DNA of 64,000 nt, taken from contig OZ245874.1 in the NCBI GenBank assembly GCA_965229335.1, forward strand, positions 5,860,736 through 5,924,735, read 5' to 3'. The notes beneath the pieces are model-generated. The model had not been told where the DNA came from. It did no database searches and was given only the letters and a program-made list of their open reading frames with translations. Shown piece after piece: positions 33,136 to 42,149 of the stretch; positions within the stretch are counted from its first letter, which is position 1, and the number at the start of each line of letters is the position of its first letter. Both the position numbers and the translations under genes were made by a program. Source of the DNA: Ferrovibrionaceae bacterium (GTDB taxonomy: Bacteria; Pseudomonadota; Alphaproteobacteria; Ferrovibrionales; Ferrovibrionaceae).

Positions 33136-33223
33136 GGAGGGATGGCCGAGCGGCTTAAGGCGCACGCCTGGAAAGCGTGTTCACCGAAAGGTGTCGAGGG
33201 TTCGAATCCCTCTCCCTCCGCCA
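33136..33223 (+). tRNA. tRNA-Ser (anticodon GGA)
   Basis: Folded by hand. The acceptor GGAGGGA pairs with TCCCTCC, and the anticodon arm is CACGC-CTGGAAA-GCGTG. It has a long variable arm (TCACCGAAAGGTGTC), T arm GAGGG-TTCGAAT-CCCTC, discriminator G and an encoded CCA. Confidence 0.9.
33207..33223 (+). repeat. attL core: TCCCTCTCCCTCCGCCA (3' end of tRNA-Ser)
   Basis: Identical to 41198-41214. The flanking bases differ on both sides. Confidence 0.85.
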
Positions 33224-33313
33224 GCCATAGCCAAGCCCTTGATATCTCATCAAGTTCTTGGAATCCCTGGCTAATTTCTTCTCGTTACTCCATTGGACTG
33301 TTACAGTGGAGAC

Positions 33314-35044
33314 ATGGAGAAGATGCCCGGACATCCCCGTCTGTATCGTCGTGGCGCGGTCTATTGGCACCGCGCCGCCGTACCCGTCGACATTGCCGAT
33401 ACCTACCCGAAAACCGAGGAAACGTTCTCCCTTCGGACCAAGGACCGAAACGAGGCCCTGAAGCTCGTTCGGATCGAGGCGGCGCGGGTGGATCGCCTGT
33501 TCGACGAACACCGCAAGCGGGTGGCGGCGGCGGCGGGGCCGACCGTGGACGAATTGACCGATGCCCAGGTCAAGGCGATCGGCGAGGCGTACTATGCGAT
33601 GCTGCTGCAAGAGGACGATGCACGGCGCCTCAGGGAATTCGAAGGGAAGTCATTTGAGGAGCATTTAGAGGACATCGCGGGCCTATCCGCTGTCGCTCGC
33701 CACGAGTTTGCGCGCGGAGAAATTAGCGACTTCGACGCCGACGAGGCCGAAGATTTCATGGCCTCCGACTGGGTGGGCGTGAAGCTGTCACCAGATAGCC
33801 CGAGCTGGCCCCGCGTCGCCCGCGAGATGAAAGCCGCCCGCATCCGGGCCTATGCGGCCAAACAATCCCGGAGCGACGGCGAACCAGTACCTACCCCTGA
33901 ACCGCCGCCGCCTTTGTCCTCACGCCAGAAGGCGCGCGGGTCAAGCCGCCTGCTGTCCGATGAGGTCAAGGATTGGATGGCCGAGAAGACCCGGACTTCA
34001 TGGGTCCCGAAGACCGAGCATGAACACCGCGTATGGATGGGGCATTTTATCACGATCGCGGGTGACAGGCCGTGGCTGGACTACAACAAGGCCGACGCGC
34101 GGGCCTTCAAGGCCGTCTTGATGCGCCTCCCCGCCAACTGGAACAAGTTCGACGCGCTGGCCCCCCTGGGGATCGCAGAAGCGTCCGACCGAGCCCATGA
34201 GCTTGGCTTACCGCCCATGTCCGAAAAGAACCTGAACAAGCTCCTGGGGTATGTCGGGTCGTTCTGGACCTGGGCGAAGGACAATCACGACGACTGCCCC
34301 GAAAACCCGTTCAGGGGCCTCAAGCTCAAACTCAAGGGCAAGAACGTCCGCGATGAGCGCCACCCGTTCACCCTCGACGAACTGAAGGCGATCTTCCGCG
34401 CACCTATCTTCACAGGCTGTAAATCAGCAACCGAATGGGCAGCGCCGGGCGCTTTTGTACCCCGCTCCGCGGGCATCTTCTGGGTGCCTCTCATAGGCCT
34501 CCTGACCGGCGCGAGGCTCGGCGAAATCATCCAACTCCGAACGTCGGACGTTCGCGCGGATCAGGGCATCACGTATCTGGACCTCAACGACGACGGCGAA
34601 GACAAGCGCCTCAAGACCGCCCACAGCAAGCGGATGGTCCCGATACATGCCGAGCTTGTTGCGGCTGGCTTCCTTGAGCTTGTCGATCAGCGCCGCCGGG
34701 CTGGCCAGGAACGGCTATTCCCTGACCTGGGGATGGGGGCGGACGGGTACTATTCGTCGCCGTTCTCGAAGCATTTCAGCCGTTTCCTGACCCGTGTCGG
34801 GGTCAAGACCCGGAAGAACGCCTTCCACTCGTTCCGGCATTGCTTTGAGGACGCCTGCCGTGACAGCGACATCTCCAAGGAGGTCATGGACGCCCTTCAG
34901 GGGCACGGCGAGGAAGGCATGTCGGGGCGGTACGGGCGTGGGTATGTCCTGAAGAAACTGGCCGAGGCGATGGGGCGCTTGCGATACGACGGGCTCGACT
35001 TATCGCACCTTCACATTCGTCAAGCGGGGGATGAGAGGCGTTGA
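33314..35044 (+). CDS. int: Tyrosine-type site-specific integrase (large, with an N-terminal extension typical of alphaproteobacterial island integrases)
   Basis: The C-terminal catalytic region reads GARLGEIIQLR ... HSFRHCFEDACRD ... LQGHG ... GRYGRGY (R...HxxR...H...Y). Its position next to the tRNA supports the call. Start at ATG 33314 or nearby. Confidence 0.9.
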   Translation: MEKMPGHPRLYRRGAVYWHRAAVPVDIADTYPKTEETFSLRTKDRNEALKLVRIEAARVDRLFDEHRKRVAAAAGPTVDELTDAQVKAIGEAYYAMLLQEDDARRLREFEGKSFEEHLEDIAGLSAVARHEFARGEISDFDADEAEDFMASDWVGVKLSPDSPSWPRVAREMKAARIRAYAAKQSRSDGEPVPTPEPPPPLSSRQKARGSSRLLSDEVKDWMAEKTRTSWVPKTEHEHRVWMGHFITIAGDRPWLDYNKADARAFKAVLMRLPANWNKFDALAPLGIAEASDRAHELGLPPMSEKNLNKLLGYVGSFWTWAKDNHDDCPENPFRGLKLKLKGKNVRDERHPFTLDELKAIFRAPIFTGCKSATEWAAPGAFVPRSAGIFWVPLIGLLTGARLGEIIQLRTSDVRADQGITYLDLNDDGEDKRLKTAHSKRMVPIHAELVAAGFLELVDQRRRAGQERLFPDLGMGADGYYSSPFSKHFSRFLTRVGVKTRKNAFHSFRHCFEDACRDSDISKEVMDALQGHGEEGMSGRYGRGYVLKKLAEAMGRLRYDGLDLSHLHIRQAGDERR

Positions 35045-35374
35045 GCCTGTTCCACACGGACGAGACGCCCGGTATTGTCACGTGGAACCGATCAACTGCA
35101 CGGCGGCCCCGTGAGCCGGGCTCAGACACGTCGGCGGTGGGGCAGTTCGGCCACGGGCTGCCCTGATCGGTTCGGATGGTTGGCGCGCTGCATATGTCCT
35201 TCAGATCGAAGGAAAATCCGGGGATACCCAGGACCGCCGCAGAGGCCCATACAGGCACATGGACGGCCCGCCGCAAGGGCAGTAGCGGACAGCGGCAAGA
35301 TGGGCACTGACGGAGTCCGCAGAGGCCCTAGCGGCGATCTATGCGGCGGTCATTCGGATTTGCAGAAAAGGGCT

Positions 35375-35500
35375 TTAGGACGGGAAGACGCGATCCGTCA
35401 GGAACACGAGAATGACCAGAAGCATCACAAAGGCGGCACCTAGCATCCATCGTATCTGGCGCAAGCTTCGGCGGATTGCTTGGAATTGATCCTCTTCCAT
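35375..35500 (-). CDS. 41-aa hydrophobic mini-protein (below the track's length cutoff)
   Basis: My translation is MEEDQFQAIRRSLRQIRWMLGAAFVMLLVILVFLTDRVFPS, with one TM helix. GGAGG lies 6 nt upstream of the ATG. It overlaps the weak track ORF 35328..35687 in another frame. Confidence 0.4.
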   Translation of the reverse strand: MEEDQFQAIRRSLRQIRWMLGAAFVMLLVILVFLTDRVFPS

Positions 35501-36044
35501 GCTGGCCTCCGTGGTTGAGGTCGAGGCGACGATACCAGAACTGCCCCGCCGGTCCTACGGCCGGAGAGATAACCTCGATACCGGCCGCCTTGCCGATCGC
35601 CAAGATGATCTCCTCGGCCAGCTCGGGCTTGAACGCGACGCCGGGCTTCATCGGGCGCATTTCGCCATCCGAGACGGGAGCGAACAAGCGGACATGGATA
35701 CCCTATCCGTAGGAATGACTTACCCCTCCAGGAAGTCCGAGACGAAGCGGTTCCAGCGATCTATTCGACCGTCGAGGAATATTCCGCGCCCATCACCGCA
35801 TTGATGCGCACCGGGTTAATTCAGCTTCATGTGAGTGGCGGCGCTTGGGGCGGGGGCGGCGGCGCCAGCTACAATTTCACGCCCTTGATGGCCCGGCTCG
35901 CCGCGCTTGCACCGTTTGATCATCTGGCGTGATCAGCCGTTCAGTATGCGCGCAGTGCTGGAGCAAAACCATACGGCCCCCGTCATCTGACCCATGGACC
36001 ACGGTCGGCCCATAGTCCGCCTCAGGTCAAACCGAGGAGGACCC

Positions 36045-36158
36045 ATGATCAAGATCAGGAAACTAAAGCTGGGCACGGTGCTTCTGGTGGTCGCCCTTCC
36101 GGCCGTCACCGCCCATCTGTTCGACAAGCTGTCCGTCGTCGTGATGATCGTCGTGTGA
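36045..36158 (+). CDS. 37-aa hydrophobic mini-protein (below the track's length cutoff)
   Basis: My translation is MIKIRKLKLGTVLLVVALPAVTAHLFDKLSVVVMIVV. GAGGAGG lies just upstream of the ATG. Confidence 0.4.
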   Translation: MIKIRKLKLGTVLLVVALPAVTAHLFDKLSVVVMIVV

Positions 36159-36286
36159 ACCGGGCAGAGGGACGCAGGGATGGCCGATCGCTGTCCCTAC
36201 GGTTTCCCGGTCGGGCGGGGGCGGTGGTGGGTCGTGGTCGAGGACGATATGCAGGCTGGCTTACGGCTTCTACTACGCTCGGGGAA

Positions 36287-36348
36287 ACCTGAAGTCATAC
36301 CCTAAGGGTACCTGAAGGTATCCCTTCGGTACGACCTCCACAGGTACC
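36287..36348. repeat. Cluster of phased GGTAC/GGTAT motifs (starts 36307, 36317, 36328, 36343) plus a direct repeat ACCTGAAG(T/G)(C/T)AT(A)CC
   Basis: Read directly. The spacing is 10, 11 and 15 bp. The cluster sits just 3' of the polymerase-like gene. Further GGTAC copies lie at 37742 and 38046 in island intergenic DNA. Confidence 0.55.
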
Positions 36349-36379
36349 ATTCCCAAGCATGTCATATGGAGGATACCGC

Positions 36380-37648
36380 TTAGGTGACCTTCAAGACTGC
36401 GTTGGTCCCGGTGATGGCTCGGTACTTGTCGGAGAGGACCGCCACCGCCCTCTCAAGGTTCGACCTGGGCACCACCAGGGCATCATGAACGGGTAGCGCC
36501 ACCACGCTCTCATCACCGAGCGCCAGCAAGGTAGCAACCATGACCGTCGCCTCCGTCTTCATTGCCTTGAGCCCCGCGCCGGTACCGAAGAGGCTGGCTA
36601 TCGGCTTGTGTCTTTCAGTCAGAAGCTTGGTGACGAGGTCGATGGTCGCATGCCGCGGAAGCAGGGCCTTGGTGCCGCCAGGGAGCCGCCATAGGGGCTT
36701 CGTCGTCGACAGCATCGCGTTGAGGACTTTCTTCAGCCCCTCGCGTCGCCCTTGGAAGCTCGGATCGTCGACCGCATAGGCGTCCTCATCGGCCGGGAAT
36801 TCCAGCCCTGCGCCAGCGTAGACGAACCTGACCGCCGCTGATCGCATGTCGACCTCACCGACCTCCTCGCCGCCGATACGAAGCTTCGACAACCGATCGT
36901 CTCCGCTCATGTTTTGCCAGAAGGCCCCGTAGAGGCGCCCGCCGTGGTCAAAGTCGACGTTGAACACCCGACGCATGGACCGGGTGCCGACATGGGGGCG
37001 GGTGATATCCCGAAGGTCCGCGACGGCCAGCCGGCGGTTGATGGTCTGCATTTCCTCGCGCCAACGGGTCGTGTCTGCGGTCTCCTCATAGTCGACCTCC
37101 GCCCCCGTCTCGCCGTTGACCTTCTCGGCCCGGAGGATGATGGTCTCCCCCTTCTGGCTGTCTGCGAAGTCGTCGGCGGTGAGCCCTTCGCTCGCCAGAA
37201 GCCCAGCCATCGCCGGGCCGGCGCTCATGACCGACTGTCGGCGCTCTTTCCGTGGCCTGTGGATTCCCTGCGGGGCGACAGTCGAAACCAGGAAGCCGCA
37301 CGCCGGGTCACTCAGTAGGTCGACGATGCCCGGGAGCTGAGTATTGAGCGCCGGGGCCTTGTAGCGGTCGCGGCTACCGAGGAAGCCCAAAGCGCGCGGG
37401 TAGGTGACGGCAAGGTCGGGCTCGGTGAGATACACCCGTGCCAATTCCGATACGATCGCTTCGACGGTAGCGCGGAAGGTTGCCTCATCGGCCGCCTTAC
37501 GAGCCCGCTGGCGGGGTTTCACGGATGGCTCGGCGCCGAGGGCGCGGGAAACGATGAAGGCCACCAGCGAGGCCCCAGCGGGCGACGCGGGGCGGTACCA
37601 GCCGGTGAACCAATGGTCACGGTCTTCGGGATCGATAAGGGGGCTCAA
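36380..37648 (-). CDS. Orphan 422-aa protein with family-A (PolA-like) polymerase motifs; candidate minimal polymerase/replicase
   Basis: Hand alignment to Taq/Klenow. GGRLYGAFWQNMS matches TGRLSSSDPNLQNIP, and VGEVDMRSAAVRF matches motif A (VALDYSQIELRV). RREGLKKVLNAML matches motif B (RRAAKTINFGVLY). GTGAGLKAMK...LPVHDALVV matches QGTAADLMK...QVHDELVL (motif C). Both metal-binding Asp are present (D267, D389). Confidence 0.55.
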   Translation of the reverse strand: MSPLIDPEDRDHWFTGWYRPASPAGASLVAFIVSRALGAEPSVKPRQRARKAADEATFRATVEAIVSELARVYLTEPDLAVTYPRALGFLGSRDRYKAPALNTQLPGIVDLLSDPACGFLVSTVAPQGIHRPRKERRQSVMSAGPAMAGLLASEGLTADDFADSQKGETIILRAEKVNGETGAEVDYEETADTTRWREEMQTINRRLAVADLRDITRPHVGTRSMRRVFNVDFDHGGRLYGAFWQNMSGDDRLSKLRIGGEEVGEVDMRSAAVRFVYAGAGLEFPADEDAYAVDDPSFQGRREGLKKVLNAMLSTTKPLWRLPGGTKALLPRHATIDLVTKLLTERHKPIASLFGTGAGLKAMKTEATVMVATLLALGDESVVALPVHDALVVPRSNLERAVAVLSDKYRAITGTNAVLKVT

Positions 37649-38338
37649 GGGGCCTCGTAGCGGGGTTCTGTCTGGGGTCAGGGGGATATGCCAGGCGCCT
37701 CAAAAGGGACCAGGTCAAGGGAGGCGATGGAGAACTGGAGGGGTACCGTGGGGCCGGACTGTTCCGTCTGGGTTGCGTCTAGTTTTCTAAATTTGCCTTG
37801 CCGGCCCGCCTAAGGTTCGTCCGTTGTCGCGCCATGCGGTGTTCTGTCTAACGTGCGTCCTTTGTCGCCCCCCTCTAACGCGGGGATAGTTTCGACCTCG
37901 GGGTTCTCGTTACTCGCGGTGGGTGCTTCGTCATCGCCTGCGTCATATGTGGGTCCGGTATCGGCAGCCGGTTCATCCGCTTCATTCCCCGACCGATGCA
38001 CTGCCGATAGCCGGCTTTGGCGATGACCGTAAAGGGTCCTAAAGGGGTACGCCGGGATGGTGCGCAGTGGCGTCAGCCACATAAATGATTGTTATAATAT
38101 GACCAAAAGGAGAAATTTCCTATGTGAAGTATCTCCATCGCGGCCAACCACCCCCGCCGACCGCCTCAGGCCCCCATACAGCCGCCTCGGCCCCGCTCCG
38201 CCGCCCACCCTAAGCCGCCCCATGAAACCCGCCCAGCGGCCTCCCAGGGGCGCCTACGGGCACGCTGCGGGAGACTATCGGGGACCAGAAAGGGCCGCCA
38301 AACAGCAGCCCTCGTAATCGTCCCCTCCCCGCCTCAGT

Positions 38339-38896
38339 TCACGCCCTCCCGATGATGCGATAGACCGACGACCGACCAATCCCGAGCCGCTTAGCGATTT
38401 CCGCAACGGGGACCTTCTCGGCATGCAGGGCCTCGACCTCCGCCGCCTTGGCCGTCGCCGTGGGCTTGCGGCCCTTGTACTTCCCCTCGCTCTTGGCCTT
38501 CGCGATGCCCTCACGCTGCCGCTCAAGCATCATCTCCCGCTCGAATTGGGCGATGGAGCCGAGAAGGTTCACCATGAGCTTCCCTGTGGGTGTCTCCGTA
38601 TCGAGGTTCATTGCGAGAACCCGAAGGCTCGCCCCCCTCTCGGCAATCTCGCCGACGATCCGCGACAGGTCGGCCACCGACCGGGCCAAGCGGTCCAGCT
38701 TGGTCACCACCAGCACGTCACCATCCCGGAGATAGTCGAGGGCCGCTTCTAGCTCCGGGCGCTTCCCCTGCGACGAAACCTGTTCGCGGTAGAGCTTCGT
38801 TGCCCCTGCGGCCTTCAGGTCCCGTATCTGGGCCTCAAAGCCCGCTTCCTGTTCCACGGTGCTGGTCCGCGCGTACCCGATCACCATGCCCGTCAT
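38339..38896 (-). CDS. Small serine recombinase (resolvase/invertase family)
   Basis: MVIGYARTSTVEQEAGFEAQIRDL...VVTKLDRLARSV...FEREMMLERQREGIAKAK plus the C-terminal HTH VAEIAKRLGIGRSSVYRII. The catalytic Ser is in YARTST. Start at ATG 38896 or 38887. Confidence 0.9.
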   Translation of the reverse strand: MTGMVIGYARTSTVEQEAGFEAQIRDLKAAGATKLYREQVSSQGKRPELEAALDYLRDGDVLVVTKLDRLARSVADLSRIVGEIAERGASLRVLAMNLDTETPTGKLMVNLLGSIAQFEREMMLERQREGIAKAKSEGKYKGRKPTATAKAAEVEALHAEKVPVAEIAKRLGIGRSSVYRIIGRA

Positions 38897-39950
38897 GTCT
38901 GCCCCCACATTCCCAATGAAATCTTAGACATAGTGGTGAATAATGCTCCAAAATGCAATACCCATTTATTTGGGGCATGATTTGGGGCGTCGGACCAAGG
39001 CCCGCAGGACCAGGGTCTATTGGGAATGGGGAGGCTGGGGATGGTTGGGCGCGCTCGACGCAACCCTGCCCTCAATCCCCCAGGTTGACCCAATGTCTCC
39101 CGATGGACGGCCCGCGCCCCGTGACCAGTCCAGCGCTTCCGCCCGAATGCGCACCGTCCTTCAGACCGCTCCTTGCCCGCGCATGGCTCCCTCGCCGTCA
39201 CGCCCGCGGTCGACCGATCGGGAACCCTCAGAAAATTCAGGCCGGGCGATCGGTACCCCCGGGGTGTGCCGGCGGGTGGGGGTCTTTCAAAAAGACCGCT
39301 AAAGCTCCGCGCGCGCGGTTAATTTTGGGTCAGACCTTCGGCAGTGAGGGCGGCCCCGGAAAAAGCAGAGGTAGCGACGGGGGGATGACTTTCGGCGTAG
39401 ACTTGATTATACTTAGCTGCCCTTAGGCCGGGAGCCCCTGTGGCCGAGAATTACATCTCGCGCAAAAGCAGGCCCCTCCCTCATGGAATATGAAAAAGGA
39501 CGAGGCGATGTTGAACATCGTTCTCCAAGTAGACCTGAACTCAGTTCTGGTTGCGTTGGCGTTTGCTATTAGCTTGAAACGCTAGTCGGGCTGGGGAGGT
39601 GGGTCGCCTGCCTCCCCATCTTACCAGTCCGCCTCCGCGCTACATGCGCCCCATCTCCTCGCGGCACCCATCCGTCCGCGCAAGAGCCCTATGCATTTAC
39701 CTGGAGAAGCGCGACGGCTATATGACCGGTCGCTGGCGTATCGAGGTCAGTCCACCCTACCAGCCCAGGCGCGCGCCGAGCGTGCCCGGACCTACCGTCC
39801 GCAACCTCAGAAACCGGTAGAGGCAGCAAGTGGAAGCGTCGGATTGGCCACGGGAATGCAAGAACTCGTTGTCGAGCCCAAGGAGTTCGTTGGCCTATTC
39901 GGCGACGCCCCAGCCCACTAACCGTCACAGTCCAAAATCAGCAAAACAAG

Positions 39951-40907
39951 CTAGTCATCTTTGTTGACGACGCCACCACAATAATCACACAAAGCATGAT
40001 TATCATAATAGGCATTATTAGGGGTGATTTCGACACCACACCTTATGCAATCCTCAAGAACATAGCCACACCATACGCATCCAACATATTCACCATCCAT
40101 AACATAGGTTCCAAGAGCGCACTCCGGGCAATCTTGAACATGTGGATTACCGCCATCCTTCGCAGCCATGTAATTCTCAACTGCGAAAGGTGTATCAAGA
40201 GAATGAACAAATATGTCCTTGGCGCTATTTTCCTCGCTACAAGAGCGACACCTGAATTCGGCTGACTGAAAATCATCGTTATCTGGGTTGACCTGTGCGA
40301 CTAACCGCGACCCACAATCCACGCAGACCAGATCAATCCCAGAAAGATAATCGACTGGCTCCCATGTGAAATTGCTCATAGTCGCCTTGCACTCGATCAA
40401 CTCTTTCTCAAACAGCAACTTTACTGCTTCGAGTTCCGCCCATGTTTCACCCAGTTCAATTTCTGGATTAAGCTTCATATGTCTGAACAGCAAAACGACA
40501 ACAGGGAATGCCTTAACGATCGCCTCGCGTACTGCAGGTTGCGTGGCTTGAGTATAAGCATGCTCAATGTCATTCCTAACCTCATTTAATGAGGTCAATA
40601 GCTTTCTATCGATTTCAATGCGAAAATCATTCAAGCGCTCGTTTATAGTTTCAAAGTCGAGCGTCTTTTTTCCCTTAGCTTTAATCTCCACCTTGCCGTC
40701 GCCATTCAATACGATCTTAAGATTAGAAGCCAGGATTATTTTTGCACTCTCATTGGGAGTAGCTCGAACCAACGTTTCTTTGGCGAGCAACAGAAGCCCA
40801 GAGTAGAAATTCCGTACAGCCGACAGCGGGCGCTTAGGATCATTTGATTTGTAATCCTCAAGCCCGAGCTGAATTGACTGGATAGCGTTGTCGAACAACG
40901 AGTTCAT
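39951..40907 (-). CDS. AT-rich orphan: predicted HEPN-like helical domain (Rx4H motif) fused to three C-terminal CxxC...CxxC zinc ribbons
   Basis: The N-terminal ~150 aa are all-helical with LNEVRNDIEHAY (R126-x4-H131 in track numbering). The C-terminus has CVDCGS..CRSCS, CPECAL..CVWCGY and CIRCGV..CDYCGG. The start is uncertain (ATG 40907, 40919 or 40952). Composition is far more AT-rich than all surrounding DNA. Confidence 0.6.
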   Translation of the reverse strand: MNSLFDNAIQSIQLGLEDYKSNDPKRPLSAVRNFYSGLLLLAKETLVRATPNESAKIILASNLKIVLNGDGKVEIKAKGKKTLDFETINERLNDFRIEIDRKLLTSLNEVRNDIEHAYTQATQPAVREAIVKAFPVVVLLFRHMKLNPEIELGETWAELEAVKLLFEKELIECKATMSNFTWEPVDYLSGIDLVCVDCGSRLVAQVNPDNDDFQSAEFRCRSCSEENSAKDIFVHSLDTPFAVENYMAAKDGGNPHVQDCPECALGTYVMDGEYVGCVWCGYVLEDCIRCGVEITPNNAYYDNHALCDYCGGVVNKDD

Positions 40908-41197
40908 GATGTCACCCATTATTATGGTGCAACGCAAAAACTCTGGACGCATTCAAGCGAGGCACCGCCGAAGCGGCTACTTCTCCATTTTGCACACCGC
41001 AACCGCCACCGCGCAAGCGGCTGGATATCCAGATTGTCGAACCGCCGAAAAGAGGGAGCCGCCACCTTCCGTCTACTCCGGATTAATGTTTGCCTCCAAC
41101 CCGCTTGCGGGCTGTTACAGTGAGATGCTACATCTAAGGCTCGGACAACGAGCGTAGAATGGCGGAAATCCTAGGGTTTTGACTCCTCTCACGAGGT

Positions 41198-41214
41198 TCC
41201 CTCTCCCTCCGCCA
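41198..41214 (+). repeat. attR core: TCCCTCTCCCTCCGCCA (17-bp copy of the tRNA-Ser 3' end)
   Basis: Read directly. Only the last 17 nt of the tRNA are duplicated, so this is not a tRNA gene. Confidence 0.85.
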
Positions 41215-41255: not shown

Positions 41256-42149
41256 TTACCGTTTGAAGCAGTTCTCCCGATGCCAGGCCAGGAAATCGGG
41301 GTGAGGCCGTTCGGCTGGCCGCAACGGGGCAAAGGCACGCCCGCTTCTGTTGATGAAGCCGCGCACCCCGTCGGGATCGTTCACCTGGCGAGAGATCAGG
41401 ATTTCCAACTCGTTGCTCAGGCTGATCAGGCCACGGTCGAACATCCAGTGCGCGGTGCCTGAAAGCGCGATGCCATTCGAAACCGCGTCGGGACCGTCAT
41501 GCTCGACCGGGCGAATATGCGCGGCATCGACCTCGGCGCGTCCGCCGCCATTGATCAGTTTAAGGCCGCTGATCGCGCAGCGTTCGTCATAGGCGCGGAG
41601 CACGACACGCCGGAAATTGCGGTCACGCACCGCACGGGTGGCAATGAAACTGACGCGGTCGCGCTGTTGGACAAAGGGAGCGCGCTCGTCGTTCAACCCG
41701 AGCGGCGGCAGGGCTTCGCCGAGCCGCGGCAGCAACGGTTCGTGATCGTCGAGGCCCAGCCCGACGATGCGATTGAAGTCCTCGGCCGAAATCGGTCGCA
41801 CCGCCGCCTGGGCGCGGCCGGAAAGCCGGCCGGTGTCATTCAGCAAGCCGCGTTCGATGACACCATCGGGGCCGGTAAAGGGGACGGGATTGGCAAAATC
41901 GAGATAGCTGCCCGGCTCGATATGCGCGAGATACATGCCGGAGACCTTGGGATCCGGACTGATCCGGCTGACCCGCGCCACCGCAAAATAGCCGCGCGTC
42001 CGCGCGACCTTGGCCGGCTCGAGGTACAGGATCCAGTCGCCTTCGCTGGCCCGGGCACGGCCAAGATACTGGCTGGGGAACTGATAGCGCGCGGCGGGGC
42101 TGTCGTCGTAGATCGAATCGGCGCGGTGGATGAAGACCCCGTATCCCAT
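41256..42149 (-). CDS. HNH endonuclease (HNH_2/COG3440-like) with an N-terminal PUA/EVE-like domain; candidate modification-dependent (type IV) restriction enzyme
   Basis: The C-terminus YDERCAISGLKLINGGGRAEVDAAHIRPVEHDGPDAVSNGIALSGTAHWMFDRGLISL is an H-N-H core. The N-terminal ~150 aa (ARYQFPSQYLGRA...GDWILYLEP...GYFAVARVSRI) resemble PUA-like reader domains. Assigned from memory. Confidence 0.65.
   Translation of the reverse strand: MGYGVFIHRADSIYDDSPAARYQFPSQYLGRARASEGDWILYLEPAKVARTRGYFAVARVSRISPDPKVSGMYLAHIEPGSYLDFANPVPFTGPDGVIERGLLNDTGRLSGRAQAAVRPISAEDFNRIVGLGLDDHEPLLPRLGEALPPLGLNDERAPFVQQRDRVSFIATRAVRDRNFRRVVLRAYDERCAISGLKLINGGGRAEVDAAHIRPVEHDGPDAVSNGIALSGTAHWMFDRGLISLSNELEILISRQVNDPDGVRGFINRSGRAFAPLRPAERPHPDFLAWHRENCFKR

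Follow-up and report, generated by a model that had tools for sequence, protein, structure and literature searches.

A tRNA-Ser island of a Ferrovibrionaceae bacterium carries a TV-Pol-type polymerase and a resolvase, with a HEPN/zinc-ribbon gene as probable unrelated cargo

Stand-alone minimal polymerases of superfamily A, 400-600 amino acids (aa) in length, were described by Iyer, Abhiman and Aravind in 2008 under the name of TV-Pols (Biol Direct 3:39, PMC2579912). They possess a thumb, a beta-hairpin arginine, two palm aspartates and, in the fingers, an aspartate together with an RxxxK motif, and never a nuclease domain. Their hosts include Rhodobacterales, Rhizobiales, Thauera, Vibrio, Desulfococcus and others. 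A subset lies near a gamma-delta-type resolvase, a lambda-type integrase or a transposase, in hot spots of restriction-modification (R-M) operons; for example, a 4-kb Brucella element consists of a TV-Pol, a resolvase and a Bro-N/KilA-C protein, with direct repeats of ~200 nt on its flanks. The authors proposed that the TV-Pol primes and replicates these elements (PMC2579912). Here we analyzed positions 35045-41197 of a 64,000-nucleotide stretch of contig OZ245874.1 from a Ferrovibrionaceae bacterium (the whole stretch is here referred to as the window), which holds genes for a 422-aa polymerase, a small serine recombinase and a HEPN/zinc-ribbon protein. We found that this interval is probably the interior of an 8.0-kb integrative island, in which a conserved backbone and an unrelated cargo gene lie together without being one functional system. 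The backbone fits the resolvase- and integrase-associated TV-Pol elements predicted by Iyer et al. in 2008. Both backbone and cargo belong to kinds already described, and the polymerase does not make up a new defence system of two genes with the HEPN gene.

Several other described systems are also close to this locus. The sole experimentally characterized enzyme of the group is CcPol-MP of SCCmec, counted by Iyer et al. among the TV-Pols, which is a dNTP-using primase with an OB-fold partner (Bebel et al. 2020, PMC7581432); CcPol is operon-linked to a helicase (PMC7581432; Rice 2022, bioRxiv 10.1101/2022.12.02.518924). For the Firmicutes primases made up of PolA and a single-stranded DNA-binding protein (SSB), an immune or counter-immune role has been raised as a possibility (Rice 2022, bioRxiv 10.1101/2022.12.02.518924). 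Alphaproteobacterial pipolins combine a polymerase, an integrase and a resolvase-like small recombinase with distal defence cargo (Mateo-Caceres and Redrejo-Rodriguez 2024, PMC11551731). As for the cargo, the PDC systems are 145 candidates found by "guilt by embedding", and HEC-08, a validated protein with an N-terminal HEPN domain and zinc fingers, needs the histidine of its Rx4-6H motif for defence (Payne et al. 2024, bioRxiv 10.1101/2024.01.29.577857).

The frame of the island and its main genes are as follows.

33136-33223, plus strand: tRNA-Ser(GGA), the integration target, whose 3' end is attL (ARAGORN; Rfam tRNA, 59.3 bits)
33207-33223, no strand: attL core, the 17-bp direct repeat TCCCTCTCCCTCCGCCA (repeat family D15)
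33293-35044, plus strand: tyrosine integrase of 583 aa, directed from the tRNA towards the island interior (Pfam DUF6538, E 2.6e-16, and Phage_integrase, E 6e-8)
36380-37648, minus strand: TV-Pol-type minimal family-A polymerase of 422 aa, with a TTG start after GAGG, a putative primase/replicase (fold, profile and motifs)
38339-38908, minus strand: small serine recombinase of resolvase/invertase type, 189 aa (PF00239, E 5.3e-41, and the helix-turn-helix domain PF02796, HTH_7, E 1.4e-9)
39951-40907, minus strand (open reading frame to 40952): putative HEPN plus triple zinc-ribbon protein, 318 aa counted from M16, the cargo next to attR (PADLOC PDC-S64)
41103-41214, no strand: conserved island end including the attR core at 41198-41214 (87% identity to the end of the sister island L001; repeat D15)

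The repeat TCCCTCTCCCTCCGCCA forms the last 17 bases of tRNA-Ser(GGA), and its copies at 33207-33223 and 41198-41214 are 100% identical and 7,991 bp apart. These 17-bp repeats delimit the 8.0-kb island, and 35045-41197 is therefore exactly the island minus its integrase. A tyrosine integrase beside a tRNA gene, together with a far-end repeat of the tRNA 3' end, is the arrangement of a tRNA-targeting island. Every item of cargo listed in a preliminary description of this DNA, which was made from the letters alone, was found in or near the place assigned to it, including the small serine recombinase with its resolvase (E 5e-41) and HTH_7 domains.

The division into backbone and cargo is seen in the closest relative, locus L001, which occupies the same tRNA-Ser/lepA site, is bounded by an equivalent 18-bp repeat and has the same layout. 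Its integrase has 86% aa identity to that of the window, and its polymerase is 72% identical. L001 keeps the integrase, a 37-aa open reading frame (ORF), the polymerase, the resolvase, two non-coding blocks (38102-38273 and 39177-39384 in the window) and the attR end. Where the window has the HEPN gene, L001 carries ~4 kb of different genes, one of which encodes a Bro-N protein.

The HEPN gene is thus described here as an independent, exchangeable low-GC single-gene cassette, whose homologues stand alone in other mobile elements. Its G+C content is 40-51%, against 60-66% in the rest of the island. The PADLOC model PDC-S64 (PDLC05058) matches it at E 2.6e-40, with residues 15-325 of 333 aligned to model positions 6-300 of 305; the match is full-length to a single-gene candidate, and the neighbours differ among the homologues. 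We sampled 87 genome or metagenome loci with polymerase homologues and one Vibrio phage locus, 88 in total, and searched them with profile HMMs (hidden Markov models). No HEPN-family gene was present within 10 kb on either side of the polymerase in any of the 88 loci. Conversely, no polymerase homologue was found in the seven loci of HEPN homologues, which represent three distinct contexts. In these seven loci the neighbours are a TIR protein with M78/DUF4411, or GmrSD, ImuB-DnaE2 and TniB, or prophage genes with an AAA_13 ATPase.

These results bear directly on the idea, favoured in the preliminary description, that the two genes form a polymerase-dependent defence unit following the logic of retrons, DRT or AbiK-like systems. 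Under that idea, a product of the polymerase, perhaps made from the spacer, would sense infection and license the HEPN/zinc-ribbon effector. HEPN effectors and polymerases co-operate in other defence systems. In this island, moreover, the two genes are 2.3 kb apart on the same strand of one small element, with a conserved non-coding block in the spacer between them. The co-occurrence counts (0/88 and 0/7) nevertheless largely refute such a unit, the sister island keeps the polymerase and the non-coding block without the HEPN gene, and the resolvase gene lies between the two genes, one of which has a different G+C content and solitary homologues. The polymerase also differs from those of retron, DRT and AbiK-like systems in having a family-A fold rather than that of a reverse transcriptase, in lacking any PADLOC match and in not co-occurring with HEPN-family genes in the sampled loci. 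We therefore regard a functional pairing of the two genes as highly improbable. The alternative that had been offered beside it, a small replicative island carrying a stand-alone gene of abortive-infection (Abi) type, is the one supported by comparative genomics. Neither the claim that no known system matches the interval nor the expectation that either outcome would be unusual can be kept, since the TV-Pol neighbourhood (PMC2579912) and PDC-S64 (E 2.6e-40) both match, a mobile element with a TV-Pol was already predicted in 2008, and the HEPN gene is a PADLOC candidate.

The HEPN assignment itself is supported by a conserved motif and by weak fold matches, and the length of the protein is revised. 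R111-x4-H116 (RNDIEH) and six CxxC pairs are invariant in 40 sequences. The predicted structure has a mean predicted local distance difference test score (pLDDT) of 87.6, and its best fold matches in the PDB are HEPN proteins (2hsb, with a template modelling (TM) score of 0.68 on the target, 1ufb, 8xeh, 8xdj and Csm6), which are weak matches at E ~0.6. There is also a weak PADLOC match to Csx1 (E 0.012), and no Pfam HEPN model matches the protein. The gene had been read as encoding 333 aa. However, translation most likely begins at M16 (position 40907), which leaves 318 aa: the homologues, ~317 aa long, span 95% of the longer ORF, and 318 aa is also the length annotated in the source genome. 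As in HEC-08, one protein combines an N-terminal domain, here a putative HEPN domain, that bears Rx4-6H with several zinc-finger or zinc-ribbon modules after it. It shares this architecture and is not a member of HEC-08, because neither HEC-08 nor DUF3644 matches it. We found no mention of PDC-S64 in the literature.

Fold, profile alignment and invariant catalytic residues identify the 422-aa protein as a minimal family-A polymerase, which is presumably active as such. Its AlphaFold2 model, built with 34 homologues, has a pLDDT of 90.8 and a predicted TM score of 0.86. When the model was compared with the PDB by Foldseek, the top 50 matches were all Pol I structures (Bst, Taq, Klenow, M. smegmatis Pol1 and apicoplast Pol), with a probability of ~1.0 and E down to 5e-5, at TM scores of only ~0.3. 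Among the predicted viral structures of BFVD, the best matches are phage proteins of 400-450 aa (TM 0.5-0.71, E down to 2e-21), one of which carries the annotation of a DNA polymerase; they are followed by ordinary PolA enzymes of phages. Moreover, hhalign aligned the family profile over 347 columns, with a probability of 78.8% and E 1.6e-5, to a PolA profile made from eight sequences, namely E. coli Pol I and seven phage PolA polymerase domains. Seven residues, R238, D267, D289, R302, K306, H388 and D389, are invariant across the 34 family sequences. The correspondences given by the alignment with the PolA profile are as follows.

R238, equivalent to Pol I R668: beta-hairpin Arg
D267, equivalent to Pol I D705: motif A, catalytic Asp
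R302/K306, equivalent to Pol I R754/K758: motif B
H388/D389, equivalent to Pol I H881/D882: motif C
A272, equivalent to Pol I E710: steric-gate Glu lost
N310/S314, equivalent to Pol I F762/Y766: O-helix aromatics lost

The thumb is present, as is the palm with its two catalytic aspartates, and the fingers are a short subdomain that contains D289 and the RxxxK motif, R302-x3-K306. Because the catalytic residues are invariant and the gate and O-helix residues are replaced, the enzyme looks catalytically competent with an altered nucleotide selection. The family-A fold that had been proposed for it is confirmed.

General databases give little help with this protein. No exonuclease or other Pfam domain was found in it, and no model of Pfam, NCBIfam or PADLOC matches it; among the PHROGs only phrog_4756, a function-unknown family, does. 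Searches of the PDB with phmmer and hmmsearch, using the protein and its family, returned chance matches only, and hhalign against the single sequence of E. coli Pol I aligned motif A alone, with 3% probability. For DNA_pol_A (PF00476) there was no Pfam match for any of the 34 members even at E 10. UniRef names one member of the family "family A palm domain-containing protein". Classical DNA polymerase I was considered as an identity for the protein and rejected: there is no PF00476 match, the equivalents of F762, Y766 and E710 are replaced, and no exonuclease domain is present.

By the features compared here, the 422-aa protein fits the TV-Pols. It is a stand-alone protein of fitting length without a nuclease, and R238, D267, D389, D289 and R302-x3-K306 fit the published motif set. 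The setting also corresponds, with an integrase and a resolvase in the window and with Bro-N and type I R-M genes in the cargo of related islands. The hosts overlap as well, comprising Rhodobacterales, Rhizobiales, Beta-, Gamma- and Deltaproteobacteria, and Vibrio. Compared with the published TV-Pol elements, the island here is precisely delimited, has a tRNA-Ser site and carries defence cargo.

The family is far from being an orphan, as the polymerase had been called. A profile search of 1.84 billion cluster representatives, clustered at 50% identity, yielded 11,520 family clusters at E <= 1e-3 and 4,751 at E <= 1e-30. We then looked at the neighbourhoods in the sampled loci. Within 8 kb of the polymerase, the 59 loci flanked by 5 kb or more on each side contain a tyrosine or large-serine integrase in 45 cases (76%), a small serine recombinase in 37 (63%) and a recombinase of any kind in 51. 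The small serine recombinase is upstream of and co-stranded with the polymerase in 35 of 52 copies, usually at a distance of 1-4 kb; the recombinase of the window, which has the domains and the size (~190 aa) of this group, is also upstream and co-oriented. At 37 of 60 loci there is a tRNA gene no more than 10 kb from the polymerase. In 24 loci, repeats of tRNA 3' ends, 16-51 bp in length, enclose the polymerase and delimit islands of 7,977-17,411 bp, whose targets are 11 tRNA isoacceptors for nine amino acids. Further copies belong to islands whose insertion interrupts comM, with a large serine recombinase alongside. Within the Rhodobacterales, one clade has a polymerase gene that starts 26 bp after the end of the integrase gene. 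The cargo of the 24 delimited islands is variable and largely defence-related, with type I R-M systems in four of them and, in addition, methyltransferases, AAA_21/AAA_15 ATPases, Schlafen/AlbA_2, DUF4145, a Cap15 receptor domain and Bro-N. Neither a helicase nor a primase recurs among these 24 islands.

Such neighbourhoods also allow a different nesting, in which the polymerase and a gamma-delta-type resolvase would be a mobile unit of their own, a replicative transposon that landed in an integrase island; it would move by recombination through the resolvase, coupled to synthesis by the TV-Pol, as Iyer et al. proposed for the Brucella element. In six of the 59 fully flanked loci there is a small serine recombinase and no detectable integrase, the Brucella element contains a TV-Pol, a resolvase and Bro-N (PMC2579912), and the resolvase-polymerase module is conserved as a block. 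We consider this quite improbable for the present island, as the window and the 24 delimited islands hold the polymerase within the tRNA-repeat bounds with an integrase at one end. Furthermore, no long direct repeats flank the resolvase-polymerase block in the window, and L001, which sits at the same site, has conserved all three genes, those for the integrase, the polymerase and the resolvase.

Among known elements, pipolins and tycheposons (bioRxiv 10.1101/2020.12.28.424599) have a similar organization. They likewise have a core of integrase, replication and resolvase-like genes near the integration site, exchangeable defence cargo at the distal end, integration into a tRNA or other gene with direct repeats, and a size of ~10 kb. 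However, the window polymerase has a family-A fold, unlike the piPolB of pipolins or an archaeo-eukaryotic primase, and the piPolB hallmark is absent. In addition, some pipolins are plasmids, whereas no small plasmid or circular forms were found for the family studied here. CcPol-MP, an enzyme of the TV-Pol group without proofreading, is a distant relative of the 422-aa protein. It differs in needing an adjacent small OB-fold SSB partner and in its operon linkage to a helicase, neither of which is evident in the window: at the sequence level, no Pfam model matches the small ORFs on either side of the polymerase gene, and a helicase was not found in the island. CcPol, annotated as A-family, also keeps two residues that discriminate against ribonucleotides, whereas the window protein matches no Pfam model and has lost the steric-gate Glu and the O-helix aromatics. 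Moreover, the SCCmec recombinases are large serine recombinases (Ccr), in contrast to the tyrosine integrase and small serine recombinase of the window.

For the island as a whole, the following scheme may be proposed. The DUF6538-type integrase would insert the element at, and excise it from, the 3' end of tRNA-Ser(GGA), giving a circle. The TV-Pol would most likely prime and/or copy the excised circle, or turn incoming single-stranded DNA into duplex, and in this way the island presumably replicates. The small serine recombinase would most likely resolve multimers or replication intermediates, plausibly at 39177-39384. The HEPN protein most likely acts alone, as an RNase effector of abortive-infection type, which would benefit the host and hence the island.

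A number of observations weigh against a replicative backbone with a defence cargo. No helicase, SSB or recognizable origin (iterons) was found in the island. Among 19 short whole contigs with a polymerase gene, none has a terminal overlap indicating a circle, and only three of 72,556 plasmid records contain a homologue, every one of them a replicon of at least 127 kb; the polymerase therefore seems not to sustain small plasmids. The phage copies are in accessory-looking clusters, with no clear pointer to replication. In the enzyme itself, the steric-gate Glu and the O-helix aromatics are replaced (A272, N310, S314). Because the loci were selected through the polymerase, its "conservation" among them is partly by construction. 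The TV-Pol assignment was made by setting the protein against the descriptions of published members rather than by direct alignment. ORF30 of Microcystis phage Ma-LMM01, which may, at a guess, be the TV-Pol that Iyer et al. reported in that phage, gave no hmmsearch match to the family and an hhalign probability of 0.5%, which is not significant. Finally, a defence function of PDC-S64 is that of a predicted candidate only.

Some of these observations would suit a different role, that the TV-Pol, with or without the small recombinase or a Cys/His protein often found beside it, is a new immune or counter-immune module rather than a replicase, and independent of HEPN. Defence genes are abundant in the islands, the polymerase is not accompanied by a helicase, an SSB or an origin, the gene is nearly absent from plasmids and not seen on circular contigs, the phage copies sit in accessory clusters, and the residues for nucleotide selection are altered; Rice (2022) raises the same possibility for PolA-SSB primases. 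On the other hand, in islands that differ in integrase and target the polymerase keeps a fixed place in the conserved core, beside recombinases; in one clade it shares an operon with the integrase, and it persists as the cargo turns over. The primase activity of CcPol-MP and the polymerase-plus-resolvase cores of pipolins provide precedents for replication. We consider an immune role of this kind unlikely. It is likewise unlikely that the TV-Pols associated with resolvases and integrases are, instead of replicases, the central component of an immune or counter-immune module of a kind yet to be described, which would make a nucleic-acid product on infection and work independently of the HEPN cargo. 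If this were true, such a module would be carried by thousands of small proteobacterial islands and by some phages.

Beyond its main genes, the replicative island proposed here contains two mini-ORFs and two conserved non-coding blocks.

35375-35500, minus strand: mini-ORF of 41 aa with a GGAGG Shine-Dalgarno sequence and a C-terminal hydrophobic helix (sequence)
36046-36158, plus strand: strongly hydrophobic mini-ORF of 37 aa, with its ATG after GAGGAGG, convergent with the polymerase gene (sequence)
38102-38273, no strand: conserved non-coding stretch in the gap between resolvase and polymerase (71% identity to L001/L002)
39177-39384, no strand: conserved non-coding block of 208 bp upstream of the resolvase gene (79% identity to L001; repeats I1 and D3)

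Both mini-ORFs are hydrophobic and preceded by Shine-Dalgarno sequences, as had been described, and they belong to different parts of the island. The 41-aa ORF is part of variable region 1 (35013-36006), without a conserved counterpart in L001; it had no tblastn match in the 87 loci and only sub-threshold matches in Pfam. The 37-aa ORF has 69% aa identity in L001 and in a second relative, L002, where a 36-aa gene is called, and it is therefore a part of the backbone. Its product might, speculatively, be a small membrane toxin or a maintenance peptide.

The non-coding blocks are shared only with the closest relatives. In the first, an AT-rich patch at ~38085-38135 marks the polymerase-proximal end, overlapping the block at 38102-38135, and the block is a candidate promoter or origin region. 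The second, common to just one relative (L001), is more conserved with it (79%) than the polymerase gene is (74%). It holds three GGTC..GACC palindromes with spacers of 1, 9 and 0 nt, which recall res subsites, and it would be a candidate res site, operator or origin. This block is within the spacer at 38909-39950, which is indeed ORF-poor: ~1 kb without credible ORFs, none having a Pfam match. An Rfam scan for a spacer RNA found nothing except the tRNA. No iterons or tandem repeats of note were seen in the island, and scans for promoters and terminators were near background. The small ORFs in 35045-36000 and 38909-39950 were scanned for excisionase, helix-turn-helix and SSB proteins, and nothing was found.

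Outside attR, a gene for an HNH_2 nuclease follows directly (41256-42149, minus strand), which resembles restriction endonucleases for phosphorothioated DNA (NF045808, E 6.6e-31, under the cutoff; PADLOC HNH, E 1.5e-17). Its conservation next to the same site in the related genome assigns it to the host flank. In L001, a WYL regulator and a PhdYeFM/PIN pair are found with this gene; with these neighbours, the nuclease indicates that the tRNA-Ser site borders a small chromosomal defence patch.

Some further features of the family were noted in other genomes. A protein of ~240 aa with an N-terminal Cys/His motif (YCAVIGC...LYCRSHEDHRERHG) directly flanks the polymerase gene in 37 of the 87 loci and is absent from the window. 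Its representatives, L024:1887-2573 and L013:9086-9754, have no Pfam match, and, going by the name, the protein could correspond to the "C3RHD" domain mentioned in the title of a supplement to Iyer et al. 2008. At L003:6296-11088, a locus of Planktomarina type, an integrase gene is followed after 26 bp by the polymerase, a 64-aa ORF and a second (DUF6538) integrase, which may be a very small integrase-polymerase element or tandem islands; no boundaries were found for it. Only five IMG/VR contigs contain a polymerase homologue. In Vibrio phages HNL01 (L088:6857-9897) and 1.121.O (L102:8863-10191), the homologue is in a short rightward cluster between leftward structural genes, and these clusters look like insertions; in HNL01 the gene after it encodes a UvrD-like helicase. 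ORF30 of Ma-LMM01 (L110:22746-24266), a hypothetical protein of 506 aa, adjoins IS605-type transposases and has its motifs in the same order as the family (GLRVY..GGGLQ, NYD, VKTAVLAVING, QHDG), a likeness that is without statistical support.

Gene proximity within a small island does not make a system. Seventeen years after TV-Pols were described in silico, a family of ~11,500 clusters is without a Pfam or NCBIfam model and is designated "hypothetical" almost everywhere. With exact att sites and a single gene each for polymerase, resolvase and integrase, the 8-kb island offers a compact model in which a possible role of minimal family-A enzymes in priming and replicating mobile DNA could be studied. 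The same island could also serve as a model for how polymerase-bearing islands move defence genes such as PDC-S64.

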